From IMG/VR virus record IMGVR_UViG_3300028886_000001: a DNA stretch of 64,000 bases. One strand, 5' to 3'. The notes beneath the pieces were generated by a model that saw only the letters and a list, made by a program, of their open reading frames with translations, ran no database searches and was not told where the DNA came from. Positions 2,670 to 57,500 of this stretch are shown here, in pieces. Every line of letters begins with the position of its first letter. Position 1 is the first letter of the stretch. The stretch is from a virus (taxonomy: Duplodnaviria; Caudoviricetes). A program made the translations under genes and the position numbers.

Positions 2670-3494
2670 CTATCTGTTACAATAATCTAATATTTCATTT
2701 CTTATATATGATTCAAGATTTATATTGAATACATCTCCTTCTTTACTAACCAATTGAACTCTTCTTCCATTATCTACTAGAGATGCTGTTTCATATAAAG
2801 TATCAAATGATTTTAATACAGTCTTTATATTAGCAGATTCTTCTTTGATATAATCCATTACTTGTTTATTAGTAATAGGTTCTATTATACCAGCATCGTC
2901 TTCAGGTAAGTATAATTTACTTCCTTCATTTTGAGCATATATATTTCCTGATTCTTCTACTATACCAGTCATATATGCAGCTTTATGAGATGGGAATATA
3001 ACCCAGTCCCAAGTAATAACTTTTATATTTTTTACTTCTGCTCCTCTATTAGTATTTTGAACAGAACCTAGAGCACGTAATGAAAATGATACTTTAGTAT
3101 CATCTAAAATAAAGTTATTGAAGTTTTCCCCTCTATCATTAGGAGTTCCTTTTACATGTGCTTTTATATTATTTCCTTCTTTCCAAAGTTTAAGTATCTT
3201 ATGTGATACATTATTAGGATCTATAGTTTGTTGTCTTGCTATATCCTTGCACATAGGATGTCCAGCTTCTCCACAGAAGTTTCCTGATTTTATTAATTCT
3301 ACAGTTCTAGGACATGTCAATTCTGGCATTAATTCTTTATCTGAATAGAATCTTCCATTTCTATTCTTTACATTCATATCTTGTAATACTGCTTCTATTG
3401 TTACCCTATTATTTTTTTCTCCTACTATAACTGGATCTTGTGGTTCAGAACTAGCAGTTTCGCATATTACAAATCCAATTTTACTATCTATCAT
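2670..3494 (-). CDS. prohead core protease (T4 gp21-like)
   Basis: NRNGRFY, GEAGHP (His), FSLRALG (Ser) and TWDWVIFPS (Asp) motifs. Confidence 0.9.
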   Translation of the reverse strand: MIDSKIGFVICETASSEPQDPVIVGEKNNRVTIEAVLQDMNVKNRNGRFYSDKELMPELTCPRTVELIKSGNFCGEAGHPMCKDIARQQTIDPNNVSHKILKLWKEGNNIKAHVKGTPNDRGENFNNFILDDTKVSFSLRALGSVQNTNRGAEVKNIKVITWDWVIFPSHKAAYMTGIVEESGNIYAQNEGSKLYLPEDDAGIIEPITNKQVMDYIKEESANIKTVLKSFDTLYETASLVDNGRRVQLVSKEGDVFNINLESYIRNEILDYCNR

Positions 3495-6416: not shown

Positions 6417-7475
6417 ATGGGATTATATAATAGAGATAGATTCCTAAGATATATATCTGAAGCAGATGATGATGACGAAAATACTTATACTATGGGTAGT
6501 GCTGATGATCCTGATGATGATACAAATGATACTGGAGACAATAATCAGGACGATACAAACCAAGATAATAATGTAGATAATAATACTAATGATACACAAG
6601 ATGACAATACCGATACTGGATATAGTATGATATCTGCTGATGATCCTGATGATGATACAAATGATAATCAGAATAATAATACAGATACACAAGATAATAC
6701 TAATGATGATAATAATCAAACTAATGATACAGATAGTTATAATATGATATCTGCTGATGATCCTGATGATAATACAAATGATACTGGAGACAATAATACA
6801 GATAATAATCAAGATGACGCAGATAGTTATAATATGATATCTGCTGATGATCCTGATGATAATACAAATGATAATAATGGAGATGACAATGCAGATGGTA
6901 ATGATAATGCTGGAGATGGTGATGATTACACTATGGGTAGTTCCGATGATCCAGACAACCAAGACCAAGACAATACTGATGGGAATACAGATAATACTGA
7001 TTCCGATAATGGAGATGATGATAGCTATAATATGGGGTCTGCAGATGATGATAACAGTGATACAGATGATACTAATACTGGAGATGATAATACTGATGAT
7101 GTATCAGATGATACTGGAGCAGATCAAGATAAGATTAAACAAATAGAAGATGATTTGTTTAAGGATTTAACTCCAGAACAATTAGCTATTAAAAATATGG
7201 AGTTAAAACAAAGATACTTGGAATTATATACTGTAATAAATGATATAATCATAAGAGTAAATAAGATTCCTAAGAGAAGTTATAATATAAAAGTATTAGA
7301 GTTTACTGGATTGAAGTTAGTAGAGTTAAGAGATTTAGTACAAACTTATCTTACTTATACATTCAACACTAAGACCTATATAGAGAATACTATAAATTAT
7401 CAACAATACTTAGCTACAATGTCTACTATTAATAGTCTTTTGAGGGAAATAACACCTAAAAATCCAGAAATATAG
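6417..7475 (+). CDS. Asp/Asn-rich repeat protein, possible scaffold/core protein
   Basis: six Y-x-M-x-S-[AS]-D-D repeats; directly upstream of the capsid gene; ISE|A site near the N-terminus. Confidence 0.6.
   Translation: MGLYNRDRFLRYISEADDDDENTYTMGSADDPDDDTNDTGDNNQDDTNQDNNVDNNTNDTQDDNTDTGYSMISADDPDDDTNDNQNNNTDTQDNTNDDNNQTNDTDSYNMISADDPDDNTNDTGDNNTDNNQDDADSYNMISADDPDDNTNDNNGDDNADGNDNAGDGDDYTMGSSDDPDNQDQDNTDGNTDNTDSDNGDDDSYNMGSADDDNSDTDDTNTGDDNTDDVSDDTGADQDKIKQIEDDLFKDLTPEQLAIKNMELKQRYLELYTVINDIIIRVNKIPKRSYNIKVLEFTGLKLVELRDLVQTYLTYTFNTKTYIENTINYQQYLATMSTINSLLREITPKNPEI
6484..7050 (+). repeat. intragenic imperfect tandem repeats
   Basis: gatagttataatatgatatctgctgatgatcctgatgataatacaaatgata occurs at about 6732 and 6822; four more degenerate copies. 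Confidence 0.9.
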
Positions 7476-7511: not shown

Positions 7512-7571
7512 AGCGTTATAAGCTGAATACAAAATAAAAAATAAAATTTTTATGAAAGGTGGTAGTTGTTT

Positions 7572-9302
7572 ATGCCAGTTATAGGTACAAGACCAAGTGA
7601 TAAAAGAAACAATGGCAAAGGTTATTTAAAAGATCCAATGTGTAAATTAACTGAATCTTTTTTAAACGTTGCCCAAGATATTGTAAATGAAAATTCTGTA
7701 GATATGTTCAGACATCCTGATATGGCTCTTATGAGAGGTACTGCAAGTAGAGACGCTATGAAGAATTTCTTCTGCAAAAACTCTTGCGATAGATCTAGCA
7801 TGGATCCAGAAGAATATGATGATCATATGGAAATGATGAGCGAACAATTTGAAAATGATTGTGATGGTTTATCATCATTTAATGAATATGCTTCAATGAA
7901 TACTTTCAACCCAGTTATTGGTATGATGTTCCCAATACATAAGAATTTACTTATGAACTGTATCTTTGATAAAGGTGCAATTCCTAAAGTAGTAATGAAA
8001 TCTCCAAAAGAAACAGTTACTATGGAAACTAGATGGTTAGTTACTCCAAAGGGAGAAAAGATAGATCTTTATAGAGATCAAAGAAAGATAAGTGATGCTG
8101 TTCAAAGCACAAACCCATTTGTAGAAGTTCCAGTTATCTTACCAGAAACAGGAACTACAGATGTATTAGCTGCTATTGGTGGTAGTTCTTTAGATAATTT
8201 ATCTATTGAAACTTCAATTTCTGCTATAATGGTTGCAGAAGACCCAGCTCATAAATTAGCTGATGCTTCATCTGAAGAAGATAAGAAAGCTGCTTTAGAA
8301 GCAGGTACATGGATAGATGTAGATATGCAATTCGTTACATCATATATGGATTATGATAGAAGTGTTATCGACCATGTAACTTATGATGATGGTAAAGGAA
8401 CAGTTAAGACTATTTGTATTTCTGCTACAATGAAGGATAACAAATTCCAAGTTGTAGATATGCAAGGAAATGCTTTAGCTGTTAAGATTAAAGCAAGATT
8501 AGATAGCTCAAATGCTATGCTTGATACTTGTAAAGTAGAATGGTCTGCTAGAACTGACTTAATTGAAGTTGGACCTGGTATTCCAATAAACGTACCAATC
8601 TCTCCTGAAGAAGTTAAAGATATTGGTGCTTTATATCAAGTTAACCAATTAACTAAGATTATGTCTATGATTAAATTAGTTATGGAAAATACTAAGGATG
8701 ATGATATCAAAGGATATCTTGATCAAAACTTTAATACTATGCCAAAGACTGATAAGATTCACAGAGTATTTGACTTTGCTCCAAGAGAAGGTTATATGCT
8801 AGACCATGTTGAATGGAGACATAAGACTTTCTTAGATGCATTAGATACTTATGTAACAGATATGCTTACAGTATTAAATGATCCAAACATGACTGTTACT
8901 ATATTTGGTAGACCAGATATCATAAGAAAGATTACTCCTACTGAATATAGCTATCAAAGTCCAAATAGTATAGGACCTGTTGAACTTGAATTCAACAAGA
9001 CTATAATGACTTCTGATAAGAGAGTATATCAATTCATGTCTTCAACTAAATTAAATGGTTCAAATGAATTAATTATAATTCTTTGCCCAAGAAATAGTGA
9101 TAGAATTATATACAGAATTTATGATTATCAAATGTATGTATCAAATGAAATCAGAAATGCTGCTAATCCTTCATTACCAGCAGTTCATGCTTTCCAAAGA
9201 TACAAAGTATGGAGTTACCAACCAGTTCAAGGAAGAGTTACTATCTTAAACCCAACTGGATTAAAAGGAGCTTACGACAGCTTAGGTTTCTCAGGTGTTT
9301 AA
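7572..9302 (+). CDS. major capsid protein precursor (probable)
   Basis: about 576 aa; own AACA-N6-TA promoter and downstream hairpin; acidic prodomain ending near FNE; near the protease and scaffold-like genes; ATG 7572 chosen by RBS spacing. Confidence 0.7.
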   Translation: MPVIGTRPSDKRNNGKGYLKDPMCKLTESFLNVAQDIVNENSVDMFRHPDMALMRGTASRDAMKNFFCKNSCDRSSMDPEEYDDHMEMMSEQFENDCDGLSSFNEYASMNTFNPVIGMMFPIHKNLLMNCIFDKGAIPKVVMKSPKETVTMETRWLVTPKGEKIDLYRDQRKISDAVQSTNPFVEVPVILPETGTTDVLAAIGGSSLDNLSIETSISAIMVAEDPAHKLADASSEEDKKAALEAGTWIDVDMQFVTSYMDYDRSVIDHVTYDDGKGTVKTICISATMKDNKFQVVDMQGNALAVKIKARLDSSNAMLDTCKVEWSARTDLIEVGPGIPINVPISPEEVKDIGALYQVNQLTKIMSMIKLVMENTKDDDIKGYLDQNFNTMPKTDKIHRVFDFAPREGYMLDHVEWRHKTFLDALDTYVTDMLTVLNDPNMTVTIFGRPDIIRKITPTEYSYQSPNSIGPVELEFNKTIMTSDKRVYQFMSSTKLNGSNELIIILCPRNSDRIIYRIYDYQMYVSNEIRNAANPSLPAVHAFQRYKVWSYQPVQGRVTILNPTGLKGAYDSLGFSGV

Positions 9303-23658: not shown

Positions 23659-24027
23659 TTATAAATCTGATAATTTTAATGTAGTACCATCTGATACAAA
23701 AGAATAAACCATTGTAGTAGATGATATAGTTATAAATACAACTTTGTTATTTAGACTATCAGTTCCCATTTTACATTTTACTGAGCTTAAAAGGAATTCA
23801 GGATAATAGTCTGTTATCTGTTGTTCTATGGTAGATTCTAGATCCATAAGCATATTGTCTCCAGAATATCTCCATCTAGTATTAATACCCACACCCATAT
23901 CAGGATGATTTGGATAAGTGCCAGGTTCTAATAATATAAGCCTGGTTAAAAATAAGCATTCTGCTTCGTATCCGTCGAGATGTGCAGGTTCGTTAAAGTT
24001 ATTTGTACTCATTAAATATTCTCTCAT
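23659..24027 (-). CDS. baseplate wedge / sheath initiator (gp25-like)
   Basis: LILLEPGTYPNHPDMGVGI motif; 122 aa. Confidence 0.75.
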   Translation of the reverse strand: MREYLMSTNNFNEPAHLDGYEAECLFLTRLILLEPGTYPNHPDMGVGINTRWRYSGDNMLMDLESTIEQQITDYYPEFLLSSVKCKMGTDSLNNKVVFITISSTTMVYSFVSDGTTLKLSDL

Positions 24028-24152
24028 TCTATTTAACCCCCTTTGTATTCGACTATTATTTTGTTTAATGTATTTTTTTATACTTTAATTCATTTACATA
24101 AGTTAAAATAACAAAAACATCTAATTAAATTGATATAAGGAGGTAATATATT

Positions 24153-26756
24153 ATGATAATAAATGAATCTTCTTCAGAGAGAAAGTTTAAGTGTCCTTAT
24201 TGTAATTATAAAGGTACAAGAGAAAGATTAGTATCTCATGTGGAGAATAATCACAAAGAAATGATACCAGAAGGATATACAGCAGCCAGAGTTGTATTCA
24301 ATAGCATAAATCATAAAGAGGTTGGACATTGTGTTCAATGTAAAGTAAATGAGACTAAATGGAATGAAGATACGTGGAGATACGAAAGATTTTGTTCTGA
24401 TAAGTGTAGAGATGCATATGTAAAAATGGCTAAAGAAAGAATGATTAAGAAGTATGGTAAAATTAATCTTCTTAATGATGAAGAACAACAAAAGAAGATG
24501 TTAGCTAATAGAAGAATATCAGGCACATACAAATTCAGAGATGGAGGAGAAAGAACTTATTGTGGTTCTTATGAGAAGAAAACATTAGAATTCTATGATA
24601 AGGTTTTAAATGTTCCATCTAAAGATATAATGACACCTGGTCCTACAGTAATATATGACTATGAAGGCGAGAAACATAAGTGGATAACTGATATATATTA
24701 TATACCTTTTAATCTAGTACATGATATAAAAGATGGTGGAAGCAACCCTAATAAGAGAAAGATGGATGAATATAGAGCTAAACAATCTGCTAAAGAAGAA
24801 GCTATAGTAAAACAAAAACAATATAATTATATAAGACTTACAGATAATAACTTCTCTCAGTTATTATTGATTTTAGCTGAATTGAAAGAGCAAATGATAG
24901 ATGACTCAGATAATAAGACAGAAAGGATAGTCGCTATTAATGAGACATCGGTAAATTCTAAATTAGATCCTAATTTTAAGAAAGGATCTAAATATAGTAT
25001 ATCATCTTATAAGAAGATAGATATATCTGATAAAATTATAAAACAATATAAACCAAAATACAAAGAGTTGAAACATATAAGAATTGGTGGGACTTATAAA
25101 GGATACTTATATATAGATAAAGATGAATTAGTAGCTTTATTAAATGTAGATACAGAAAAGAAAGAGATACAAGCATTAGAAATCATGAATAAATATAAAG
25201 GTCATGGGTTATCAAAGCAATTATTAGATATAGCTACTAATGATTTACAAGCAAATTCATTATGGGTAAATAAAAATAATGAAGTGGCTTTAAATATATA
25301 TTCTAAATACGGGTTTAAAGAAGTGTCATCATCAGGATTGATGATAAAAATGCAATTAAAAGATACTATTAATGAAAATAATAAGAAGTATGAATATGAA
25401 ACTGGTATAGATATATTAGAACCTAGGATGGATCTAAATAAAGCTACAAGATATGATGCTACAGATGAGAATAGAATATACTATCATATACCTAAGAGGA
25501 AATTAAAGACTGGAGATAAGTATAAAGGATTTATATATGTAGATAAACTTTCTTTAGTAGGATTTATAAATGTATTTATGGAGTCTCACTTTATAGATAA
25601 TCTAGAAGTATATTCTCCATATGAAGGCATGGGTATAATACCACAAATGATATCTCAAGCTGTAAAAGAATTAGGTGCTAGAAATATTACTGTAAGGAGA
25701 AGTAATAAAGCTCTTGCTGAATTTGTAAAAGCTTTAGGATTTGAGAAATATAGACATACTTCTACTATGGATTACTATACTATTAAGGATACTAATAATG
25801 AAGCATGTGCTGCCGTAATGGCTGCTATACCACCATTAAATCCTAATATATATGTAGCTGGATATCCTGCTCCTAATGTATTTACTAAAGCTTTAGAATT
25901 ATGTACTGATAAATATGGTACTAATACAGTAAAGTATAAAGATGGTAAGCTTAAGAAGTCAAAGATATCTATAGATGATAATGTACAGCTATATAAATAT
26001 AAAGGTAAGAGAAATATAAATAAAATAGTAAAAGAAATATATGAAGATATGAATAATGGTATAGAAGTAGAACCTTCATATATTTATGAAGCTATTACTG
26101 GAAGAATAATGATGACGCCAGATCAAATAGAATATGATGAAGACTTTGAAAAAGTAAATGATGGATTTACTGAAGCTAAATATAAGTCTCAAATAGAATG
26201 TGCTACTTTAGTTCATCAGTTTATACATGAATTAACTAAGACTGATTTTAAATTTGACATAGTAGATTATATATTAAAAGATAAAGCAGATGAAATATTG
26301 AAAGATTATGATAATCTTACAATAAGACAAGATGGCGTTGGTAGATTCATGGTAATCAATAAGCTAGATGGAAAGTGTAGTAACTTTTATTATACTTTAG
26401 ATGAAATACCAAGAAATATACTACCAGATTTAAATGAACCACCTAAAGATAGACCAGATATGATAGAAGAAGATGTAAAGGTATTGACTAAGAATGATTT
26501 TAATCTTCCTATATATGATGCTAAGCTTTTAAAGAAGAAAGATAATATACTTCATGACTATCATAATCTAGATATAGTGCAAAATAGTGTAGGTAGATTT
26601 ATGGTGATTAATAATAAGAATAACAAAGTAAGTCCATATTATGATGATATGGATGATATACCAGAAGGTATGCTTAGAGAATTAAATAAAGGAGATGGAG
26701 ATAGTGGCAATATACAATATGAAGAACCAAAAAGAATTGGAAAACAAGGAGAATAA
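24153..26756 (+). CDS. multidomain late protein: zinc fingers, PD-(D/E)xK-like nuclease, two GNAT domains, duplicated C-terminal module
   Basis: CPYC..H..H, CVQC/FCSDKC, TDIY..DIKDG; YKGHGLSKQLL..N..A..IYSKYGF; YEGMGI..N..LGF. Confidence 0.7.
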   Translation: MIINESSSERKFKCPYCNYKGTRERLVSHVENNHKEMIPEGYTAARVVFNSINHKEVGHCVQCKVNETKWNEDTWRYERFCSDKCRDAYVKMAKERMIKKYGKINLLNDEEQQKKMLANRRISGTYKFRDGGERTYCGSYEKKTLEFYDKVLNVPSKDIMTPGPTVIYDYEGEKHKWITDIYYIPFNLVHDIKDGGSNPNKRKMDEYRAKQSAKEEAIVKQKQYNYIRLTDNNFSQLLLILAELKEQMIDDSDNKTERIVAINETSVNSKLDPNFKKGSKYSISSYKKIDISDKIIKQYKPKYKELKHIRIGGTYKGYLYIDKDELVALLNVDTEKKEIQALEIMNKYKGHGLSKQLLDIATNDLQANSLWVNKNNEVALNIYSKYGFKEVSSSGLMIKMQLKDTINENNKKYEYETGIDILEPRMDLNKATRYDATDENRIYYHIPKRKLKTGDKYKGFIYVDKLSLVGFINVFMESHFIDNLEVYSPYEGMGIIPQMISQAVKELGARNITVRRSNKALAEFVKALGFEKYRHTSTMDYYTIKDTNNEACAAVMAAIPPLNPNIYVAGYPAPNVFTKALELCTDKYGTNTVKYKDGKLKKSKISIDDNVQLYKYKGKRNINKIVKEIYEDMNNGIEVEPSYIYEAITGRIMMTPDQIEYDEDFEKVNDGFTEAKYKSQIECATLVHQFIHELTKTDFKFDIVDYILKDKADEILKDYDNLTIRQDGVGRFMVINKLDGKCSNFYYTLDEIPRNILPDLNEPPKDRPDMIEEDVKVLTKNDFNLPIYDAKLLKKKDNILHDYHNLDIVQNSVGRFMVINNKNNKVSPYYDDMDDIPEGMLRELNKGDGDSGNIQYEEPKRIGKQGE

Positions 26757-28482
26757 ACAAGAGCCTATTATAAAGAAAACTCCTATCAAAGAAGATACAA
26801 AAATATTATCAGAAAAAGAATTTCAAATACAACTAGAATCAGCTATGAATATGAATACACTAGCTAAGCCATTAGATGAATCTATATCATTAATCAATAA
26901 GTATAAAGAGTCTAATAATATATTAGGATTATATGAAGAATTATCTAAATTATCTAAGATAAAGACTAATTCTATATATGAAGATTCTGTTATATCTAAA
27001 ACCATAAGAGATGCTAAACCCAAGTTTGATTGTAATATAAATAGTATATTTGATTATGTAAATGATTTACCATACTTCTTACCAGAAGAGATGGAAGATA
27101 TGGATATAACTATAGATAGCAATGGATTAGATTTAGGTAATGATGTATCTTTGAAAGAATGGTACAATAAATATAAAGCTACATGTTTATTAGGAAGTGT
27201 AAATGAATATAGTTCTTTATGGGTTAATAAACTTAAAGAGCTTTATTCAGATTATGATAAGATATTAGAATGTGGTAATGATGATAAAATAGAACAGAGA
27301 AGACTAGATATACTTAAATTAGGATGGAATCCAGAATTGCCTTTTACTATAAAGACTAGACAGATGGTTACAGAAAGGACAAGAAATAAATTAAAAGCTA
27401 GATGTAATGATTGTTGCATAGATATATCTGAAAGTTTTAAAGATGTATCTGATAATGATATAGTATTAGAAGGAAAGTCTTCTTATAGAGAACCATTGTT
27501 TGTAGCATTAAGTTATAGTGGATATGCTTTTAGTAATCTTATAAAAGTTTATACTCATTCTAAGTATTCACATGCTGCATTAGGGTTATCTTCAGATTTA
27601 AAACAATTATATTCTTTTAATCTAAATGATGGAAGTAGAGGATTCTCTGTAGAAGGAATAGACTCTTATAGGAAGATAAATGATAAAAGCGAAATAGCAG
27701 TATTTGTTACTTTTATACCTAAATATAAATTCCAACAAGTAAAAGCTAAGATAAACGATTTTGTAAAGAATATAGATAAGACAAGTTATAGTGTTTTAAA
27801 TATATTAGGATTAGCTGCTGGAGTAAATATAGAAAGAGAAAAAAGTATGATATGCTCTCAATTTGTAGATACTATATTAAAATCTATAAATATAAATGTA
27901 ACAGATAAGCCATCTGGTATAGTTACTCCTGCAGATATATATAATAATGCAGGTAAACTTATGTATAAAGTATATGACGGTCCAGTAACTAAATATAGTA
28001 AAGCTAAAGTAGATAGCATAATTCATAAGATAGAAAATAGTTTATCCATACATGAAGCAGTATTTATGAATGTAAAATCAACTCCAATAACTTTTGATGA
28101 AGATGGTAATCTTCTTATAAAGAATATGAAGAAGTTGGATTATGAAGCAGAGTATTCTAAGTGTCATAAGTTATTAGTATCATATGAAAAGACTAATAAT
28201 ATAGAAGGAATGAAGTATGAGTTATGTAAACTATGGTTTATGAATACTTTATTAGAAAAGAAGATATATAATAATAAGAAAGATGATAAGACTAAATATC
28301 ATAAAGCAAGAGCTAAGATACTAAATGATTTCAATTATTATCTTAAATATGTATGTAAACATGATAAAGACTTTAATTTTACAGAGTATTATAATAATAC
28401 TCCATTCTCAGATGCAGCTACTAAAATAGATAAACATACACTAAAGTATGGAGTTAGACTAATTAAATCTATATTAATATAA
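26695..28482 (+). CDS. late protein with internal permuted papain-like (YiiX/YebB-type NlpC/P60) domain
   Basis: SKYSHAALG (His) precedes MICSQFV (Cys), then VTPADI; true start may be GTG 26704. Confidence 0.75.
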   Translation: MEIVAIYNMKNQKELENKENKQEPIIKKTPIKEDTKILSEKEFQIQLESAMNMNTLAKPLDESISLINKYKESNNILGLYEELSKLSKIKTNSIYEDSVISKTIRDAKPKFDCNINSIFDYVNDLPYFLPEEMEDMDITIDSNGLDLGNDVSLKEWYNKYKATCLLGSVNEYSSLWVNKLKELYSDYDKILECGNDDKIEQRRLDILKLGWNPELPFTIKTRQMVTERTRNKLKARCNDCCIDISESFKDVSDNDIVLEGKSSYREPLFVALSYSGYAFSNLIKVYTHSKYSHAALGLSSDLKQLYSFNLNDGSRGFSVEGIDSYRKINDKSEIAVFVTFIPKYKFQQVKAKINDFVKNIDKTSYSVLNILGLAAGVNIEREKSMICSQFVDTILKSININVTDKPSGIVTPADIYNNAGKLMYKVYDGPVTKYSKAKVDSIIHKIENSLSIHEAVFMNVKSTPITFDEDGNLLIKNMKKLDYEAEYSKCHKLLVSYEKTNNIEGMKYELCKLWFMNTLLEKKIYNNKKDDKTKYHKARAKILNDFNYYLKYVCKHDKDFNFTEYYNNTPFSDAATKIDKHTLKYGVRLIKSILI

Positions 28483-28907: not shown

Positions 28908-29936
28908 ATGATTAAGTTAATAAGTAATGATGAGAAAAAATTAGCAGAATTGGCAAAGAGGAATACTTATATTATACGATATATAGAAAACCCTACAGAA
29001 GATATGCAGTTAGATTTTGTACGTAAAATTGGTTATAATATACAAGGTATAAAAAACCCTACAGAAAAAGTAAAATTAGAAGCGGTAAAACAAAATGGTT
29101 CTTCTATAAAATATATAAAAAAACCTTCAAAAGAAGTACAATTAGCAGCCGTAAGGGAAGATGGCTATGCTATAGAATATATAAGTGATCCATCAGAAGA
29201 GATACAATTAGAAGCGGTAAAACAAAATGGTTCTTCTATAAAATATATAAAAAACCCTTCAAAAGAAGTACAATTAGAAGCAGTTAAACAAAATGGCTAT
29301 GCTATACAATATATAAGCGATCCATCAGAAGAAGTACAATTAGAAGCGGTAAAACGAAATGGATGTGTTATAGAATATATAGAAAACCCATCAGAAGAAG
29401 TACAATTAGCTGCTATAAAACGAGATAGTTATATTATACGATGTATAAATGAACCTTCAGAAGAGATACAATTAGCTGCCGTAAAACGAAATGGATGTGT
29501 TATAGAATATATAGAAAACCCATCAGAAGAAGTACAATTAGAAGCAGTTAAACAAAATTGCTGTGCTATAGAATATATAAGCGATCCATCAGAAGAAGTA
29601 CAATTAGAAGCAGTTAAACAACGATACCCACATGTAGTAGAAAATATTAAAATAAAATTATGTGAAAAAGCGACTGATTATCTTATAAATAATCCTATAG
29701 AGATGTATAAGATTACTAATAATATGTATGTCTTTAAAACAACAGGAAGAGATGTTGTATGTGAATATAAAGATAATCAATGGTATTATAGTTTAGGATG
29801 TCAGTATAATATAACAAAAGATGTATTTATTGATAGAATATATAATGATGGAGAAGGTGATCCTGATAAGTTCCCACATAGAAAACAGTATTTAGAAGTT
29901 ATAGATTATGTAGAAAATTTGGATATGAATAAGTAA
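28908..29936 (+). CDS. 22-aa tandem repeat protein (DUF4116-like)
   Basis: about 11 repeats of EEVQLEAVKQNGYAIEYIxxPS; unique C-terminal domain. Confidence 0.85.
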   Translation: MIKLISNDEKKLAELAKRNTYIIRYIENPTEDMQLDFVRKIGYNIQGIKNPTEKVKLEAVKQNGSSIKYIKKPSKEVQLAAVREDGYAIEYISDPSEEIQLEAVKQNGSSIKYIKNPSKEVQLEAVKQNGYAIQYISDPSEEVQLEAVKRNGCVIEYIENPSEEVQLAAIKRDSYIIRCINEPSEEIQLAAVKRNGCVIEYIENPSEEVQLEAVKQNCCAIEYISDPSEEVQLEAVKQRYPHVVENIKIKLCEKATDYLINNPIEMYKITNNMYVFKTTGRDVVCEYKDNQWYYSLGCQYNITKDVFIDRIYNDGEGDPDKFPHRKQYLEVIDYVENLDMNK

Positions 29937-37396: not shown

Positions 37397-38644
37397 TTAT
37401 TGTGGTTGTTCGTTATTGTTAGGTAGATTTAGATTAGTGTTACCTTTAGCAGCTTGATCATCATCTTTATCGTTTGTACCAACATAATGTCTTACATGGT
37501 TCTTTATAACTTCCATGAATTTCTTTTCTGCTTCTTGTGCTACAGTTAATTTAGCAGCAAAATATTGTCCACCAATTTCAAAGTATACTTTTGCTCTTTC
37601 TTGTAGTGTATTATAAGTATTCTTATTTTGTTCTACATTAGCATCAGCATTATCTTTTGTATTTTGCTGATAATTAGCAGCTGTATTACCATTATTGACA
37701 GTAGCGTTGTTATTATTATTATTTTGGTTTTGCTGTTGTTGTTTAGCAGCATTAGCTTTGTCTTGTTGCTCTTGTTCTTTTTTACCTTCTTTAGCTGCTT
37801 GTTCCATAGCATTATTATTATCTACTGGTGGTTCATTATTTTTATCTTTATCATCGGCTTCTGTTATATATTGTTCAAATATAGCAGAATAATACTTTCT
37901 ATCTTCAAATATGGATAAAGCACTTTCATGTTGTTCTTGTTGCTGTTGTTTTAATTCATTATTATTATTCATAGAAGCTAGTTTACTATCAAACTTCTTT
38001 TGTGCTTCTTGGAATGCATTGATATCTCTTTGTATCTTATCTTTTAAACTACCATAGTTTATACAATAATTATACATATCAGTCATATTTACATTAGCAG
38101 CAACTTTACTAACTTCGTCTCCGCCACCTCTAAATGCAGCAGTAGCTAAATCAGTAATAGAATCAAAAGGACCTTTACCGAATTTAGTAAAATCTCTAAA
38201 TCTTTGTGTTATAAATGTATTCTTATCATCAAGAACACTCTTACCTTCTTCAGCATTAATATCTTGATCGGTTAATTGTGGGCAAGAGTTGTTAAGAAGT
38301 AATTGAATTCCTCCATTATAATAATCATATATAATGATATCGTCTGCTGGTTTCTTCTTAAGAATAATATCTTTATATCTTTCAAGATAAGCTTTATCGT
38401 TCTTAATAAGAGTATTCATAGCTTCTATAAATTTACCCCATAATTTACCTATGAAAGTAAGAAGTTTATGTATAACTTTCTTTACACTTTCACTAAATGA
38501 TTCTTGTATAAGTTCTATATTTTCTATAGTATCTGCTCCTTCACCAATAAGAACAGCTTCATTTATTATTCTTTCCATACGAACTTGCTGAGTTGTTCTC
38601 TCAGCAAGGAATGTTAAATATTCATATTGTTGTGAATAGTTCAT
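37397..38644 (-). CDS. internal head protein paralogue with Q/N-rich insert
   Basis: IQE|S followed by the family amphipathic helix; INEA, QHES and ITEA sites. Confidence 0.65.
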   Translation of the reverse strand: MNYSQQYEYLTFLAERTTQQVRMERIINEAVLIGEGADTIENIELIQESFSESVKKVIHKLLTFIGKLWGKFIEAMNTLIKNDKAYLERYKDIILKKKPADDIIIYDYYNGGIQLLLNNSCPQLTDQDINAEEGKSVLDDKNTFITQRFRDFTKFGKGPFDSITDLATAAFRGGGDEVSKVAANVNMTDMYNYCINYGSLKDKIQRDINAFQEAQKKFDSKLASMNNNNELKQQQQEQHESALSIFEDRKYYSAIFEQYITEADDKDKNNEPPVDNNNAMEQAAKEGKKEQEQQDKANAAKQQQQNQNNNNNNATVNNGNTAANYQQNTKDNADANVEQNKNTYNTLQERAKVYFEIGGQYFAAKLTVAQEAEKKFMEVIKNHVRHYVGTNDKDDDQAAKGNTNLNLPNNNEQPQ

Positions 38645-38656
38645 TAATTACACCTC

Positions 38657-40342
38657 CTAATTAAATTCTACACCAGATACAAATGTATCGGCATAAGAAT
38701 CTATAAATGAAGATACACTATCAGAATAGCTTTCTAATACATCAATATTATCTTCACTATTTATAGCAGCTTCTGTTTTAACTTTTAATTCAGATAAAGA
38801 TCTTTCTAATGCTCTCTTCATCATCTTCTTTTCTTTAGAATCAGGCATCTTGTTTACTTTCTTTAGAGTTCTTTCTAAATCATTCTTTAATCCATTAATA
38901 TCACTACCAGAACCTTTAACTGTTGAACCCACAGTAGAACTAATAGCCATTACCATTCCACCAATTAATATTGGTAAGAAAGATATTACTAATCCTAATA
39001 CTCCAGTAGCCATTACTAATCCACCAGATACCATTCCTATTAGTATAATTATATTACCTATAGTCTTTCTAATTATAGCTAATGGAGATTTTTTGATAAA
39101 TTGATTTACTTTTATAGCAGCTTCTGTTTGAGAATCTCTTACATCTACTCCAATAGCATTGCATATCTTAACAGCTAAAGCTTCAGAAGTTGATTCTTCT
39201 ATATAAGAGTAATCTGTTACATCAGAATACTTATCTATCATAGATTCTAACTTTAAGTCTTTAGTTACTTTACTTAATGCTGTATATAATATCTTCTTAT
39301 CTTGTTTAGTTCTATCTGTAATAGCATCTAATTTATAAGAGAAAGCCATAGAATGAATAGAAGACATCTTAACTACTTGGTCTGCTTTAGCTTTCATATA
39401 TAAATCTAATTTATTTAAAGTATCTTGAGATACTACTAATTCACCAGGAGCTGGAGTATATCCATCTCTTACAGTTATAGGTATAGCAGTTTTAGATAAA
39501 TCTCTATCTTTATTTCTAGATATCATCTTTTCTATATCTTTCTTTATTCTTTCATAGTCTTTTTCTATCTTGCTCTTTGTCTTCTTTACATCTTCTTCTA
39601 ACTTTTTATAAGTTTCAAGATTATGCAAAGAATCCATTACTATAGAATTTGTTACAGTAATAGTAGATTCTGTATTCTCTCCATCTCTATATACTCTAAA
39701 TAATTCATCAGCAAAGTCTTCTTCATCTATAGGATCTGTTTGTCCTATACAATCAGCTCTGAATTGGTCATACCATTCACCATTATCTAATGATTCTAAT
39801 AAATCATCATATGCTGAAGACACTTTATCTGTTATATCCTTATTCTTACCAGTAGTATCATTTAAACTACTTAAATCTAAACCAACAAAGCTTTGATTAA
39901 ATTCTGCTAAAGCATGTATAGCAGGTACGTTAGATACAAATGTATAATTATATCCGTCTATATCAAATTCATGATCTGAATTAAATTTATTAAGTTTATC
40001 TTTCTTCTTTAAGATATACTTCTCAGAACCTACAAACTTATGTAGTTGAGCAATAAATCTTTCAAATAAAGATTTAATCCATTTTAAGAATTTAACTATA
40101 ATATCTTTTACCTTTTCAAAGAAATCAGAAAATCCTTCGTTTACTATTTCAATATCATTTTCACTTTCTAATATACTTCTATATAAGATCTTATTAGCTT
40201 GGTTTAATTCTTCATGCATTTCTAATATGTGTTGCATAGCTAAAGATCTATATGATTTAGTCATAGATAATGTAGTATTAGTTATACTAGTATGATCCAT
40301 AACTGTTTCAGTTAATAGATTTTCCATATTAAATAATGACAT
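38657..40342 (-). CDS. internal head protein paralogue with C-terminal hydrophobic hairpin
   Basis: VNE|GFSDFFEKVKDIIVKFLKWI; LTET, ILES, KLES, IEES and VLES sites. Confidence 0.65.
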   Translation of the reverse strand: MSLFNMENLLTETVMDHTSITNTTLSMTKSYRSLAMQHILEMHEELNQANKILYRSILESENDIEIVNEGFSDFFEKVKDIIVKFLKWIKSLFERFIAQLHKFVGSEKYILKKKDKLNKFNSDHEFDIDGYNYTFVSNVPAIHALAEFNQSFVGLDLSSLNDTTGKNKDITDKVSSAYDDLLESLDNGEWYDQFRADCIGQTDPIDEEDFADELFRVYRDGENTESTITVTNSIVMDSLHNLETYKKLEEDVKKTKSKIEKDYERIKKDIEKMISRNKDRDLSKTAIPITVRDGYTPAPGELVVSQDTLNKLDLYMKAKADQVVKMSSIHSMAFSYKLDAITDRTKQDKKILYTALSKVTKDLKLESMIDKYSDVTDYSYIEESTSEALAVKICNAIGVDVRDSQTEAAIKVNQFIKKSPLAIIRKTIGNIIILIGMVSGGLVMATGVLGLVISFLPILIGGMVMAISSTVGSTVKGSGSDINGLKNDLERTLKKVNKMPDSKEKKMMKRALERSLSELKVKTEAAINSEDNIDVLESYSDSVSSFIDSYADTFVSGVEFN

Positions 40343-40425
40343 ATTTAATACCTCCTTTTAAATAAAAAATAGGAGATTACCTTAATGGTAATCTCCTTAA
40401 ACTACCGTTAAGTAGTTGAATTGTA

Positions 40426-41562
40426 CTAAATAAAGTTTAATTCTGATAAGAAGCTAGCTCCTTCATTATAAGAATAATCATCATATGATTCTTTAATAGA
40501 CTTTCTTCCTACTAAAGCAACACAGATAGCTTTTGCTTGTCTATTTCTATCTTTAATAGCTGTTAATTTAGCTCCATTAACTACTTGAGCTATAGCTAAT
40601 GCATCTTTACGTATTTTTGCCCAGATATTAACAACTTGAACAGCAATTGACATCGCTTCTTGCTCATCTTTATTTTTATCTTTATCTGGTATAGCATTAG
40701 TTAAGTCTCTAGATGCTTTATCTAAAGCTTTAGTTATATCTTTTATTGATCTTTCGAAATCAGATAAATCTTTCTTAGTTAAATCTATTGTTTTCTTAGT
40801 AGTAGAAATTATTGATAATAAATCAGAAGGATTAGTTCCTAAATCTGATAATTCTTTTTCTTCTTTAGATGTTTCATCATCTCTAAAATATTTAAATAGT
40901 TCTTCTGTAAATTCAGTAGAAGTACAAGAACCACAATTGATAGTTGCTCCTCTAGCCTCTTCTAAAAGATCTTGTTCATCTTCATTAAACTTTTCTACAG
41001 CTCTTTTGATCTCTTCTTTTTTTGAATCATTGTTCATATTAACAGAATTTACAATAGAACCATAATCCTTATTATAAGTTGCAAATGTGTTTCCACCATC
41101 TAGTTTTCCTAATGCTGCATTGAACATATCTTTAGCTTGAGCACTATTACTATCTAAATTAGTAAATTTAAATCCTTTAAATTTAAAATCTTTTAGATTA
41201 GCATTAATAACTCTATCTTTATACTTATCTGCAAATTTCTTATCATCTATAAGATAAGAATTTATCTTAGCAAAGAATTTTCTAAATAATCCTTTGATCT
41301 TTTCCCATATCTTTAAGAAAAATGCTTTAAGTTTTTCTATAAAACCAGATGCAGTACCTGATTCATAAACCATTTCTACTCCATTTTCTTGTAAGTAGCC
41401 TAGTTCATCTTTAGCAACAGCTTGCATTAATTTATTAAAATTTAATTCACTTTCAGCAACTATATTTAAAGCAGCTTCCATTCCTGGTTCATATTGGCAT
41501 TCAACAATACCAGTATTATCGAAATCTCTTGAATAATTTCTTCCTATTGAATATACACCCAT
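40426..41562 (-). CDS. internal head protein paralogue
   Basis: VYE|S..FIEKLKAFFLKIWEKIKGL; VAES, IKES and YNEG sites. Confidence 0.65.
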   Translation of the reverse strand: MGVYSIGRNYSRDFDNTGIVECQYEPGMEAALNIVAESELNFNKLMQAVAKDELGYLQENGVEMVYESGTASGFIEKLKAFFLKIWEKIKGLFRKFFAKINSYLIDDKKFADKYKDRVINANLKDFKFKGFKFTNLDSNSAQAKDMFNAALGKLDGGNTFATYNKDYGSIVNSVNMNNDSKKEEIKRAVEKFNEDEQDLLEEARGATINCGSCTSTEFTEELFKYFRDDETSKEEKELSDLGTNPSDLLSIISTTKKTIDLTKKDLSDFERSIKDITKALDKASRDLTNAIPDKDKNKDEQEAMSIAVQVVNIWAKIRKDALAIAQVVNGAKLTAIKDRNRQAKAICVALVGRKSIKESYDDYSYNEGASFLSELNFI

Positions 41563-41631
41563 TGTATTATTCCTCCTTTTAATTTATAATATTATTAGGT
41601 TCTAAATTAATAGAACCTAATATAATGTTTC

Positions 41632-42840
41632 TTAATATTCGTAATCTTCGAATGCTGATTCTATTTCAAAACCTGCTGATTCTGCTACAGCATCTAAATA
41701 TACATAATCACTATACATACTTTCATTAGTAGCTCTATAAGCAGCAGCTTTAGCAAATACTGTTCTAGCTTGTTTTATTTTAAATTTAGTTTCAGCCATT
41801 AAAGCAGAACAAGTTCTTGTAAAACAAGTATTATATAAAGATGCCATTCTGTGTGCAACACTTAATCTTTGATTATTTAATGCATTTGTTCCTACACCAG
41901 ATGGAAATGGATTTCCGTGTGAATCAACTAAACTAGTTGGTTTACCTTTAACTTCAATGTTTCTAGTTTCATTATCATCTTTATGAGTATATGATATAGT
42001 ATATGCATCTGCTGTACTATTTGCATTTTTAGGTATTTTTTTCATTATATCTTTTTGAGCCTTATCGATAGAATTAAGAAGAGATTTAAAAACCTTATCT
42101 ATATTATCTTGAGCTTTCTTAATATTTTCTATTTCTTTCTTGCTACCTACAAGAGTTGACATAATATCAGTTAATCTAGAACTATCTAATCCTTCTTCTT
42201 CTGTTTCACTATCAAAACACTCTTCATGTACATCTTTTGTAAATGATGATGAATCTGTTGATACACCTGCTAATAATGTCAATACTTCATCTTCTTTAGT
42301 TCCATCATCTATATTATCATTAATTTCTTGTAATTGCTTTTCATCCATATTAAATACATTTGATGCTCCTGATAATACAGTATCTATATTTGAACTTGAT
42401 ATTCTACTTGCAAGACCAGAAATTTTTGAATTGTCTGGTTCGCACCATTTATATTTCATCTTAGAAAGATTTTTCTTTAGTACATCATTCTTATATTTTT
42501 CAACAAATTTCTTATTATCAGTAATAACAACTTTGTTTAATTTTACAATAAAAGAATGTAAAAGACCTTTGATCTTTTCCCAAATCTTCTTTATGAAAGC
42601 TTTTAATTTATCAAAAGCTCCTCCTAATCCAGATTCTGTAACAATTTCTAATTCACAACCTTCTGAGAAAGCATAAGCTTCAGCAAAGTCTTGTCCTATA
42701 ACAGCTTCAAATATTGCTTGGTCATTTACATAGCCTTCAGTTAAAGCTACTAATGCACCATCTACGCCTCTATAATTTTCGTTAGCTACAACATCGTAAT
42801 GTCCACCAAGAGATGTTGAATTTCTTCCATATAAACCCAT
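41632..42840 (-). CDS. internal head protein paralogue
   Basis: VTE|S..FDKLKAFIKKIWEKIKGL; LTEG, TNES and VAES sites. Confidence 0.65.
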   Translation of the reverse strand: MGLYGRNSTSLGGHYDVVANENYRGVDGALVALTEGYVNDQAIFEAVIGQDFAEAYAFSEGCELEIVTESGLGGAFDKLKAFIKKIWEKIKGLLHSFIVKLNKVVITDNKKFVEKYKNDVLKKNLSKMKYKWCEPDNSKISGLASRISSSNIDTVLSGASNVFNMDEKQLQEINDNIDDGTKEDEVLTLLAGVSTDSSSFTKDVHEECFDSETEEEGLDSSRLTDIMSTLVGSKKEIENIKKAQDNIDKVFKSLLNSIDKAQKDIMKKIPKNANSTADAYTISYTHKDDNETRNIEVKGKPTSLVDSHGNPFPSGVGTNALNNQRLSVAHRMASLYNTCFTRTCSALMAETKFKIKQARTVFAKAAAYRATNESMYSDYVYLDAVAESAGFEIESAFEDYEY

Positions 42841-54538: not shown

Positions 54539-57500
54539 TTATTCTACTGCCAATTTATTTAATAATTCCATTAGATATGCATTATCTGGATTTTGGTCTT
54601 GATTAGCATCTCTCATTACAGTCATAATTGAATTAGCAGTATTAGCATTATCAGCTGCTGTATTACCTGATCTATTAGCTAGTATTTCTACTATCTTATT
54701 TAATAGATTTGTATTATCTGATATCTTTAATAGAGTTTGTATTATAACTTTCAATAACTTGTTATAGTCTTGAGTTTTTAATGTAGTATTGTTGTTTTCT
54801 ATAGTAGTACTATCTGTAGGTCCGAATCCCATACCCTTAGAATTGTATGGTGTTCTCTTATTCTTAATCTTAGAATTCATAGGATTATCTGGTCCTGAAC
54901 CAGCATCTAATTTACTAATATATCCATCTAAATTATCTGTATCATTCATAGATATATCGGTTTTCATCTTAGAATCCATAGGATTATCTGGTCCTGAACC
55001 AGCATCCTTATTTTCACTATCACTGCTAGCATTTTCATCAGTATTCTTGAATCCCATTAAGCTATTAAATGCTCTAGTTGCTTTTGTTCCAAGTGTACTA
55101 AAGAATTCATATAATGAAGGTTTACTTTCAGTAGATTTACTAGATGAAGAATCAGATGATGAATTGCTATCACTAGAACCTGATGCTTTAGAACCATCTA
55201 ATTTCTTATCTGATATCCAAGCATGCATCATTCCAGCGTTCTTTAAATCTGTCATAGATACGGTTAATGGTTGATCTCTATATCCAGGATTGTTTATTCT
55301 TACATTACCATCTTTATCTGCATTTACTGCAAATACTAAATGTCCACCACTTGAGAATGGTCTACTTCCTTGTCCTGATAATATAGCTGGTCTATTGTCT
55401 TGTAAAGCTGGCAATAAAGTTCCATCATAGTCTGTTGTTTCTACCATGTTTATACCATATACTTTACCTTGTTTAGCAAAGTAATCCCATGAAGTACCTG
55501 CACCACTAATATATCCTCCATTATTTGTAGACCAATCAGCTGTTTCATCTGGAGTTACTGAATTATTAGTTACTGAATCTATAAGCATAGCCATAGATGT
55601 TGGTCCACAACCTGATCTTTGAACTGTTGAACTTCCGTATGGGTGACTAGCCCATCTTTCATCAAATTGCTGGAAGTATACTGCACCATTTTGTTTATCA
55701 GAGTCTTTTACATTACCGAATCCTACTCCAATACCTTTATGGTTAACTTGTTTGTCTGATTTACTATTTTGTACTCCTCCTATATTTAATAGTGAATTCT
55801 TCTTACCTTTATCTATATCTTTATCAGACTTAGAGTTTTGTACTCCACCTTTACCGAATCTTGATGTAAATGATTGATCACCACTTAAGTATGCATTAGG
55901 ATCAAATCTAGCTTGGTCTTTACTATCTCTTACTTCATAATGTAAATGAGGACCACTAGAGTTACCAGTACTACCTACCTGTCCTAATTTATCACCCATA
56001 CTTATCTTATCACCAGATTTAAATGTTATTCCGTTTCTATTAGGTAATGATTGCATATGAGCAAAGTAATGATAATTACCATTATGAGCATCATCAGAAT
56101 TAGTTTCAGCTACTTTTAATAAGTTTCCATATCCTCCACTAGATTCTGGAGATAATGATGATACAACTACACCATCTATAGGTGATATTATATCTTTTCC
56201 TTCTATATCTGATTTACTATAATCTATTCCTGTGTGTTTATGATCCCCTCTTTGCTCTTCATATGGTCCTGTAACTACTGCTCCACCTAATGTAGAATTA
56301 TACCAAGCATCTGAATCGTATTTACCTGTAGCAGATTTATATCCTGTTGTATTTGAAGAAGAACTACTTGACTTAGATGACTTATCACCATATCCAAATA
56401 ATGAATTTATTGATTTAGAAGCCAATGTAGCTAAATCTGTAAAGAAGTTCATTACACTTGGTTCAGATTCACTTGATTTAGAATTAGATGCCTTGCCATC
56501 ATAACTTGCATTATTATTTTCAGCTTTTGAAGGGTCATATGAACCATTAGTATTATCTACAGTATGTCCAGCTTCACCGCTTCTTGTTGTAGGTGTATTC
56601 CACATTATACTACTGATATTATTAATCCATTCTTCATTAGGGGAACCATCATCCATTTCTGCATACATATGATGCTTATCTGCATATTCCATCTTTTGTA
56701 ATGTATCTTGACCAGGAGTAGTAAAGTTATCTTTAATCCATTGAGCACCTTTAACAACACCGTCTTCTGGACTAGCAAAATCATAAGCTGAACTATAAGG
56801 AGTTGCATTATAAGCTGCTATACCAAATGGGTTATTTTTATCTTTCCATATTGTAGAACTACCCCAACCAGTTTCAAGCATACAATGTGCAAATATATAT
56901 TTAGGATCCAATCCAGATTTTTGACCAGCTTGTATAAATGCATCTGATAATTGAGATATACCAGTATCTTTATGCATTTTATCCATATAGTTTCTTAGCA
57001 AATCTGCATTAGTATCATATCCTATTTTTGAATCAAGTTTAGCATATCTTAAACTATTAGAATTATCAAATCCTGGATAATCTTCTGCTCCTCCTATATT
57101 TTTATTTACACCTTGAGCCATGGCTAATTGCTTATCTGTAACTATTCCACTAGCTTTAGCCATTCGATTTATTGTATTTATATCGTTATAAGGTTTAGCT
57201 CCAGAGCCTATTCTTATATTTGATTTCTTTTTATTTCCTTTAGCAAAGTCTTTATTTGCTTGTAATACTTTGTATGCTAATTGAGATTTATTTTCTGTAG
57301 AAGTTCTTGATCTTAATTGGTCTTTTGATAAAGTTCTATAATCATGATCAAATATAGGAGATCTCTTTCCTTTTGCTATATCTTTATCAGATTTACTATC
57401 TTGAACTCCACCCCATCCAAATGCTGAAGCAATTTTATCTTTTACAGCTTTTACACCATATAGCCATGGCATTGCAATAAATGCTCCTTTCTTTATACCA

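Follow-up and report, generated by a model that had tools for sequence, protein, structure and literature searches.

The 64,000-nucleotide stretch of DNA analysed here (the window) belongs to the IMG/VR virus record IMGVR_UViG_3300028886_000001, an AR9/phiR1-37-like jumbo phage of bovine and pig gut metagenomes. One of its genes encodes a protein of 867 residues, P0001, in which a zinc-finger nuclease, two predicted acetyltransferase domains of the GNAT type and a C-terminal module are separated by disordered segments that carry short sites ending in Glu. Among the relatives of P0001 the modules turn over at such sites, where the Glu and a hydrophobic residue at P3 are conserved, and the same motif is found in the precursors of the head proteins of this phage. 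We think it probable that at least the linkers at Glu264 and Glu408 are cut by the phage head protease in a precursor that is packaged into the head.

Architecture of P0001

An interpretation of the window made from its letters (the sequence-only reading) had described this gene as a rack of cargo enzymes that is packaged into the prohead, cut into free effectors and injected with the DNA. The open reading frame (ORF), the features and the five Glu sites on which it was built are all present at the positions it gave (Table 1). According to the AlphaFold model, all five sites fall in segments with a predicted local distance difference test score (pLDDT) below 50 (residues 1–8, 253–279, 404–442, 549–563 and 766–789), and these site-bearing segments separate the folded domains of the protein. 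Structure prediction, which the sequence-only reading had proposed as a check, places every site in a disordered linker.

Table 1. Positions of the features discussed, numbered from the first letter of the window unless stated; an arrow in a motif marks the presumed cut or, in L-Q-E↓S of phiR1-37, the mapped one.
Feature	Positions	Strand	Basis or remark
Polyprotein ORF (P0001), 867 aa	24153..26756	+	ORF reading
Late-type promoter AACA-N6-TA	24116..24127	+	Matches AR9 late-promoter consensus; 37 nt before ATG
Strong ribosome-binding site AAGGAGG	24137..24143	+	Read from sequence
Possible 5-residue N-terminal propeptide, residues 1–5, ends I-N-E	24153..24167	+	pLDDT <50 for residues 1–8
C2H2 finger, C4 ribbon and PD-(D/E)xK nuclease, residues 6–264, ends I-N-E264	24168..24944	+	PHROG 15137
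GNAT1 cassette, residues 265–408, ends I-N-E408	24945..25376	+	Pfam Acetyltransf_10
GNAT2 cassette, diverged GNAT1 paralogue, residues 409–550, ends N-N-E550	25377..25802	+	Paralogy and fold
Conserved C-module, residues 551–773, ends I-E-E773	25803..26471	+	In 35/83 relatives
Second terminal-subdomain copy and disordered tail, residues 774–867	26472..26753	+	52% identity to residues 710–761
Site INE 3–5	within 24153..24167	+	Residues 3–5 of P0001
Site INE 262–264	24936–24944	+	Nuclease/GNAT1 joint
Site INE 406–408	25368–25376	+	GNAT1/GNAT2 joint
Site NNE 548–550	25794–25802	+	GNAT2/C-module joint
Site IEE 771–773	26463–26471	+	Between C-terminal repeats
595-aa neighbour gene, probably second cargo gene	26695..28482	+	Overlaps polyprotein gene by 62 nt, other frame
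gp25-like baseplate wedge gene, divergent neighbour	23659..24027	-	Weak Pfam GPW_gp25 match
Head-maturation protease, presumed processing enzyme	2670..3494	-	Pfam S77/S80, PHROG 207/3014
Protease V-E-E↓S-G site	2946–2966	-	Exactly at end of S77 match, residue 181
Major capsid protein	7572..9302	+	Two conserved Glu sites in N-terminal 105 residues
Capsid Glu sites 1 and 2	7677–7694, 7872–7889	+	Alignment of 108 N-termini
Four tandem internal-head paralogues	37397–42840	-	Glu site after aa 48, 69, 67, 69
MG[ILV]Y proteins	41632–42840 (-), 40426–41562 (-), 6417–7475 (+), genome C1:12528–13913 (+)		Two internal-head paralogues, acidic repeat protein, one other

The nuclease matches the PHROG 15137 ('endonuclease') profile with E = 1e-43 (residues 12–242 against profile positions 4–232 of 236) and is modelled with a pLDDT of ∼88 over residues 9–252. 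C14, C17, H29, H34, C60, C63, C81, C85, E141, D180 and K193 are invariant in an alignment of 36 sequences and D191 is conserved in at least 90% of them; going by this alignment, the metal-binding and catalytic residues of the predicted nuclease are kept. By tblastn, the N-terminal ∼250 residues have 35–41% identity to 25 phage records (∼40% to AR9 g233 and 35% to phiR1-37 g237). Stand-alone homologues described as an 'endonuclease fused to N-terminal Zn finger' occur in AR9/PBS1, Staphylococcus jumbo phages, Listeria LPJP1 and Yersinia phiR1-37, where g237 is annotated as a phage structural protein. In relatives of P0001 a hydrophobic-x-E site stands directly before the zinc finger, and the 7-residue N-terminal propeptide shed by T4 Alt is a precedent for a propeptide as short as the one suggested here (PMC9026906).

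The GNAT1 domain is recognised by PF13673 at residues 305–393 (E = 1e-14; 54.9 bits against a cut-off of 23.6) and folds over residues 280–403, ahead of the disordered linker 404–442. GNAT2 is weak in Pfam and has 31% identity to GNAT1 over 102 residues (E = 1e-17); it folds over residues 443–548 with a pLDDT of 50–79. The G-x-G acetyl-CoA loop is kept in both copies. Both are closest to the RimI-type protein acetyltransferases, with scores below the cut-off of the RimI NCBIfam equivalog, and we describe them as RimI-like, predicted acetyltransferases. The 15 nt stretches at the tails of the two GNAT cassettes differ by a single base (14/15 shared). The near-identity of the 'KDT(I/N)NE' sites pointed out in the sequence-only reading is partly the result of a duplication in which the GNAT cassette was copied along with its tail.

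The C-module is modelled with a pLDDT of 80–95. It gave no match in Pfam, in the PDB (Foldseek) or among annotated BFVD entries, and the protein atlas returned nothing usable; a library-wide phmmer search found it always C-terminal or stand-alone, so that in these searches it had no recognisable relative outside the polyprotein family. Over 52 residues, the C-terminal repeats have 52% identity to each other; the second terminal subdomain folds over residues 790–847 and is followed by a disordered tail (residues 848–867).

Exchange of modules at hydrophobic-x-Glu sites

Among 5.8 billion proteins searched, 481 relatives of 476–1217 residues were found. Their nucleases are 50–66% identical to that of P0001, while the other modules vary in kind, number and order; the cassettes include GNAT, HAD, NUDIX and P-loop domains, some of them N-terminal to the nuclease. 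IMG/VR adds ORFs of 254–1879 residues with transglutaminase-like (DUF553) and kinase-like cassettes. Taken together, the relatives have 2 to ∼10 modules each. The domain order, a constancy of which had been named as an argument against the cargo rack, is thus not fixed, and the modules vary.

Before any following module, the nuclease ends in hydrophobic-x-[IV]-N-E. Glu264 is invariant and Asn263 is conserved in more than 90% of the 36 diverse aligned homologues irrespective of which module comes next, in keeping with the conservation of the junction Glu that the sequence-only reading had looked for, and 64/70 distinct IMG/VR ORFs have [ILVM]xE at this position. Five exact stand-alone nucleases (254–255 residues; L068, L069, L070, L072 and L077) end in R-I-N-K-stop, with Lys in the place taken by the junction Glu in the polyproteins; Glu is thus present only where something could be cut off.

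We defined a breakpoint as a position where the alignment of two relatives breaks off while each sequence goes on, and counted it only with the support of three or more partner proteins; in 83 non-redundant proteins this gave 402 breakpoints. Of these, 42% lie within 4 residues of [ILVM]xE, compared with 20% of random positions (z = 10.7), and with S/G/A/N/T required at P1' the values are 27% and 7.6% (z = 14.4). The control motifs [ILVM]xD, [ILVM]xK, [ILVM]xN and [SAG]xE show no enrichment at the 402 breakpoints, and the signal persists when the nuclease and 25 residues on either side of it are left out (z = 7.2). An earlier, naive test on all BLAST alignment ends had given weak enrichment and is superseded by this module-swap test with several partners. 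In the 88 distinct breakpoint contexts, P3 is I/L/V/M, P2 is free (N and K are the commonest), P1 is E and P1' is most often S and then N. Many joints have two sites 4–6 residues apart, reminiscent of the site redundancy that has been reported in the propeptides of giant phages (PMC9026906). Cassettes therefore do vary at the sites, as the sequence-only reading had expected, but the x-N-E rule that it had proposed does not hold as a specific one: what the sites have in common is hydrophobic-x-Glu, with Ser or Asn as the usual next residue.

Within one protein the motif is unremarkable and too short to carry meaning. Across the proteome, which is rich in I, N, E and K, [ILV]NE occurs 89 times against ∼76 expected, and in the linkers of P0001 alone the enrichment of sites is just about twofold; the significance of the sites comes only from the comparison of relatives.

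One relative, P0031, is 97–98% identical to P0001 apart from 95 extra residues exactly after Glu408. The insert starts with Ser at P1' and ends in an I-N-E of its own, after which the P0001 sequence resumes; it is 57% identical to a module of P0046 that is likewise bracketed by Glu sites. The gain of a cassette at a proposed cleavage site, put forward in the sequence-only reading, is thus matched at the protein level by one insertion/deletion in a near-identical strain. In three of four independent gut metagenome runs the whole 2.7 kb lay in one contig with 24–34 substitutions and no insertion or deletion, and in the fourth the gene was covered in several pieces, again without one, so that the cassette polymorphism was not seen again among the contigs of these four runs.

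Modules are also encoded apart. In several loci (L022, L010, L029 and L037) the C-module has a gene to itself immediately behind that of the nuclease, and several library proteins are likewise separate C-modules; they begin with a short stretch that closes in x-x-E and continues with Ser/Thr, or directly at P1'. Next to AR9 g233 and phiR1-37 g237 no homologue of the C-module or of the GNAT domains adjoins. Homologues of the 595-residue neighbour of P0001 are fused in frame inside a nuclease polyprotein in at least six relatives (L057/L058, L014, L075, L061 and P0036) and form a separate downstream gene in ∼40 loci. The neighbour itself has a His...Cys papain-like core and Glu sites of its own, and its homologue in L055 has an N-terminal GNAT domain.

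The head protease and the motif in head proteins

The gp21-like protease that the sequence-only reading had noticed in the window is confirmed by profile searches and lies on the minus strand; it scores 43.4 bits with PF03420 (S77) and 40.3 bits with PF20034 (S80), both above the cut-offs. Its V-E-E↓S-G motif at Glu181 is likely to be a site of C-terminal self-cleavage and may correspond to the self-processing of SPN3US gp245. A further site, V-I-C-E↓T, is found at residue 12 of the protease.

In 108 distinct N-termini of major capsid proteins from this lineage, site 1 reads I-L-x-E↓S-G with P2 varying freely (Leu at P3 in 100/108, Glu at P1 in 108/108 and Ser at P1' in 94/108). Site 2 has Glu at P1 in 107/108, and a conserved N-P-V follows seven residues after this Glu. 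According to the GenBank record of phiR1-37, the mature capsid protein begins at Ser87, which gives a cut at L-Q-E↓S six residues before N-P-I, and site 2 aligns with this mapped cut. The sole mapped cut that we found for this phage group, that of the phiR1-37 capsid protein, therefore follows the hydrophobic-x-Glu rule when read against its sequence. The TTG start of the capsid ORF at 7566 is probably wrong, because the relatives start at the ATG at 7572, and the latter is favoured.

Each of the four internal-head paralogues has a hydrophobic-hydrophobic-x-E site followed by Ser/Gly directly before a conserved amphipathic helix, and in two of them a weak match to phiKZ_IP (PF12699) begins at the Glu site. 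Four of 199 proteins combine an MG[ILV]Y start with a following hydrophobic-x-E site, where 0.2 are expected, and the leader motif has no internal occurrences. An MG[ILV][YF] start is found in 8/83 polyprotein relatives, and starts of the MG[ILV]Y type are also found on genes downstream of stand-alone nucleases (L069 and L070). From this distribution, MG[ILV]Y may be a head-targeting leader. One of its bearers (6417–7475, plus strand) is a 352-residue protein encoded between a 923-residue protein and the capsid gene, with MGLY as its leader and a site I-S-E↓A; beyond these its sequence is a run of repeats, extremely acidic and rich in D/N/T, in which the unit S-A-D-D-P-D-D recurs, and it may be a scaffold-like or DNA-mimicking head component.

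The junctions of the polyproteins share the substrate features of the S77/S80 proteases, with P3 I/L/V, P1 E and P1' S/N in disordered linkers, as at the mapped L-Q-E↓S87 and the capsid I-L-x-E↓S-G sites. The sequence-only reading had compared them with the substrates of both T4 gp21 and phiKZ gp175; the likeness to T4 gp21 (L/I-x-E) stands, whereas phiKZ gp175 has a different preference (S/A/G-x-E).

Proposed processing and alternative explanations

In the pathway that we favour, the virion nuclease, which is the constant element in this phage group and is orthologous to AR9 g233 and phiR1-37 g237, would act as the carrier for swappable enzyme cassettes. The precursor would be made late from the AACA-N6-TA promoter and built into the prohead, where the gp21-like S77/S80 protease would cut after Glu5, Glu264 and Glu408, with Glu550 and Glu773 as less certain further sites. 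The products would be a ∼30 kDa nuclease, two ∼16 kDa acetyltransferases and C-terminal pieces, which would remain in the head, enter the cell with the DNA and act on host DNA and host proteins; such targets are plausible by analogy with T4 Alt and with the GNAT domains of polyvalent proteins. The nuclease itself may be what takes P0001 into the head, since the stand-alone form in phiR1-37 is annotated as a structural protein of the phage. We infer the cutting, the packaging, the injection and the enzyme targets from sequence. Somewhat more tentatively, we suggest that AR9-like gut jumbo phages have a plug-in cargo system, in which any module between hydrophobic-x-Glu↓Ser linkers, either on the nuclease carrier or on the cargo gene beside it, would be packed into the head with its carrier, set free by the head protease and injected.

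Several observations weigh against cleavage in the head. The motif is short and common in the proteome of this AT-rich phage; P0001 has ∼19 occurrences of [ILV]xE, and ∼14 beyond the proposed sites lie inside folded domains. All five sites of the sequence-only reading are present, but two depart from the commonest pattern: NNE550 is atypical because its P3 is Asn, and at IEE↓D773 the P1' residue is Asp. The nuclease domain has the hydrophobic-R-I-N tail as a part of its own conserved C-terminus, and the stand-alone forms have this tail as well, so only the Glu is specific to the junction. The breakpoints of the relatives share ancestry and are not independent events, so that the z-scores overstate the number of such events. 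As for packaging, P0001 is without the MG-x-Y leader and so has no recognisable head-targeting signal, the 'structural' annotation in phiR1-37 is not specific to the head as opposed to the tail, and the nuclease gene adjoins a baseplate gene. The proteome paper on Staphylococcus phage DC4 is silent on the presence of the nuclease in the virion, and the phiR1-37 transcriptome paper does not mention g237.

These points leave room for other explanations. P0001 could be an uncut polyvalent protein, that is, a single 100 kDa multi-enzyme chain, either packaged or active inside the cell, in which the Glu linkers serve as flexible joints or shuffling hot spots. Examples that travel intact are known (N4 vRNAP and TraC1; PMC5512222), the 14/15 nt shared by the GNAT tails are a possible recombination substrate, and the cleavage of P0001, like the cleavage and packaging of any form of the polyprotein, is deduced from sequence comparison. 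However, the conservation is at the protein level: P1 is invariably Glu, P3 varies among I/L/V/M and P2 may be N, K, Y, T or another residue, which leaves no fixed DNA word at the sites. Also against this explanation are the Lys that replaces Glu in the stand-alone forms, the short x-x-E↓S peptide with which separately encoded modules still begin and the recurrence of the motif at the maturation positions of the capsid and internal proteins; we regard an uncut chain, the main rival, as unlikely.

A late multi-enzyme of the cytoplasm that is never packaged, for example one serving nucleotide or DNA metabolism, would suit the HAD, NUDIX and kinase-like cassettes of the relatives and the missing leader of P0001. 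It fits poorly with the annotation of the phiR1-37 orthologue as a virion protein, the late promoter and structural-gene flanks, the leader that some relatives share with the internal-head paralogues and a cassette turnover that is fast, like that of conflict systems, and we consider it very improbable. Cleavage could alternatively be the work of another protease, either a host enzyme or a cysteine-protease-like cassette of some family members; the large relatives do have transglutaminase-like/DUF553 cassettes, and polyvalent proteins are usually released by embedded peptidases. Since no peptidase domain was found in P0001 itself and the motif equals the mapped maturation site of the phiR1-37 capsid protein, we give this explanation hardly any weight. 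Processing by the head protease is the explanation that we prefer, and the cargo-rack interpretation of the sequence-only reading is favoured in each part that could be tested computationally; overall we regard it as partly supported.

Relation to known systems

In full-text literature searches, enzyme cassettes with head-protease sites between them were not found described. The closest idea in print is that of the polyvalent proteins that phages and conjugative elements encode (Iyer, Burroughs, Anand, de Souza and Aravind, 2017; PMC5512222), which these authors liken to the polyproteins of RNA viruses and predict to be packaged and injected (PMC5512222). P0001 resembles them in combining many unrelated enzyme domains (RimI-like GNATs and nucleases) in one chain, in its late/virion gene setting, in its predicted entry into the host with the DNA and in its rapid domain turnover; with its nuclease, two GNAT domains and C-module and with its variable relatives, it has what marks such a protein, namely at least two unrelated effector-type domains and relatives that vary. 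The release of polyvalent proteins, where present, is by embedded peptidases, whereas here there is none and the joints carry the head-protease motif. Nor did we find the AR9-type Zn-finger nuclease carrier among the polyvalent architectures described.

T4 Alt and the internal proteins IPI–III are head-packed enzymes that an S77 protease trims at L/I-x-E and that leave the head together with the DNA, and the motif here resembles theirs. They have a capsid targeting sequence and are trimmed by gp21, with Alt losing a C-terminal piece as well as its 7 N-terminal residues (PMC9026906); the Alt family is associated with baseplate genes. In T4, however, every cargo protein has a gene and a targeting peptide to itself and loses no more than propeptides, while here there are several enzymes per chain and no recognisable leader. 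The jumbo phages phiKZ, 201phi2-1 and SPN3US (gp175/gp245, MEROPS S80) likewise cut after Glu, with redundant sites, a preference for Ser at P1' and paralogous internal proteins with N-terminal propeptides. They differ in P3, which is S/A/G in phiKZ and A in SPN3US but I/L/V here, and the phiKZ-type cuts remove N-terminal propeptides and the protease's own C-terminal propeptide rather than separating enzymes. AR9 g233, PBS1 and phiR1-37 g237 are homologous to the N-terminal 250 residues of P0001 and lie at the same divergent spot by a gp25-like gene, but these nucleases (∼237–239 residues) end after the nuclease fold, without the linker Glu site or extra modules.

If the cleavage is true, one late gene would give rise to several free, capsid-delivered enzymes and the head protease would double as a polyprotein processor, a combination not described in the literature searched. 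It would explain the quick exchange of injected effectors, because whole cassettes would move with their own cut site, and a simple sequence rule would predict the mature virion proteome of a large group of uncultured phages in livestock and human guts. It would also be a natural counterpart of the expression-packaging-processing system that was engineered in T4 to load capsids with foreign proteins. The GNAT, NUDIX, HAD, transglutaminase-like and kinase-like cassettes are candidates for early host takeover or counter-defence. Should the plug-in system as a whole exist, strains would swap counter-defence enzymes cassette by cassette, the 95-residue insertion/deletion between 97–98% identical strains would be such a swap caught as it happened, and a DNA phage would be using a polyprotein strategy that relies on its capsid protease and not on an embedded one.

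Genome, neighbouring genes and expression signals

The genome is a single contig of 213 kb with 27% G+C. It has the hallmarks of the AR9/phiR1-37 type: a split RNA polymerase beta subunit, GroEL, a capsid protein that is distant kin of those of phiR1-37 and AR9, the four tandem internal-head paralogues with their weak phiKZ match and a protease that passes both Pfam S77 and S80. Sequencing runs that bear the gene come from bovine, pig and other gut metagenomes in at least nine studies, not counting the sample that may be the source; no RNA run was listed among them.

The polyprotein gene is located among structural genes. Its pairing with a divergent gp25-like gene recurs, as a pairing of nuclease and gp25-like genes, in AR9, phiR1-37, Staphylococcus phage DC4 and 51/78 IMG/VR loci. 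The late-type promoter that the sequence-only reading had placed at 24116 is there as AACA-N6-TA, the late-promoter consensus of AR9 (PMC5312081). This motif occurs within 120 nt upstream of 61/199 ORFs of the genome, against ∼10 expected, and the genes that it precedes include those of the protease, the major capsid protein, the gp25-like protein and the internal proteins.

Small ORFs are preceded by TATATTAT/ATATTATA, which resembles the AR9 early-promoter core; examples in the window are the upstream regions at 266, 1921, 29974, 30433 and 32237, and genome-wide ATATTATA has 41 copies in upstream regions against 8 expected. The presence of this early motif at small ORFs and of AACA-N6-TA at structural genes suggests, as far as promoter sequences can, that the two-polymerase programme of AR9 is conserved. 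Elsewhere in the window, positions 28908–29936 (plus strand) encode a 342-residue protein with seven DUF4116 repeats (Pfam E = 7e-39), and an ORF of 3071 residues, possibly longer, occupies 54539–63754 on the minus strand and is open at the end of the window.

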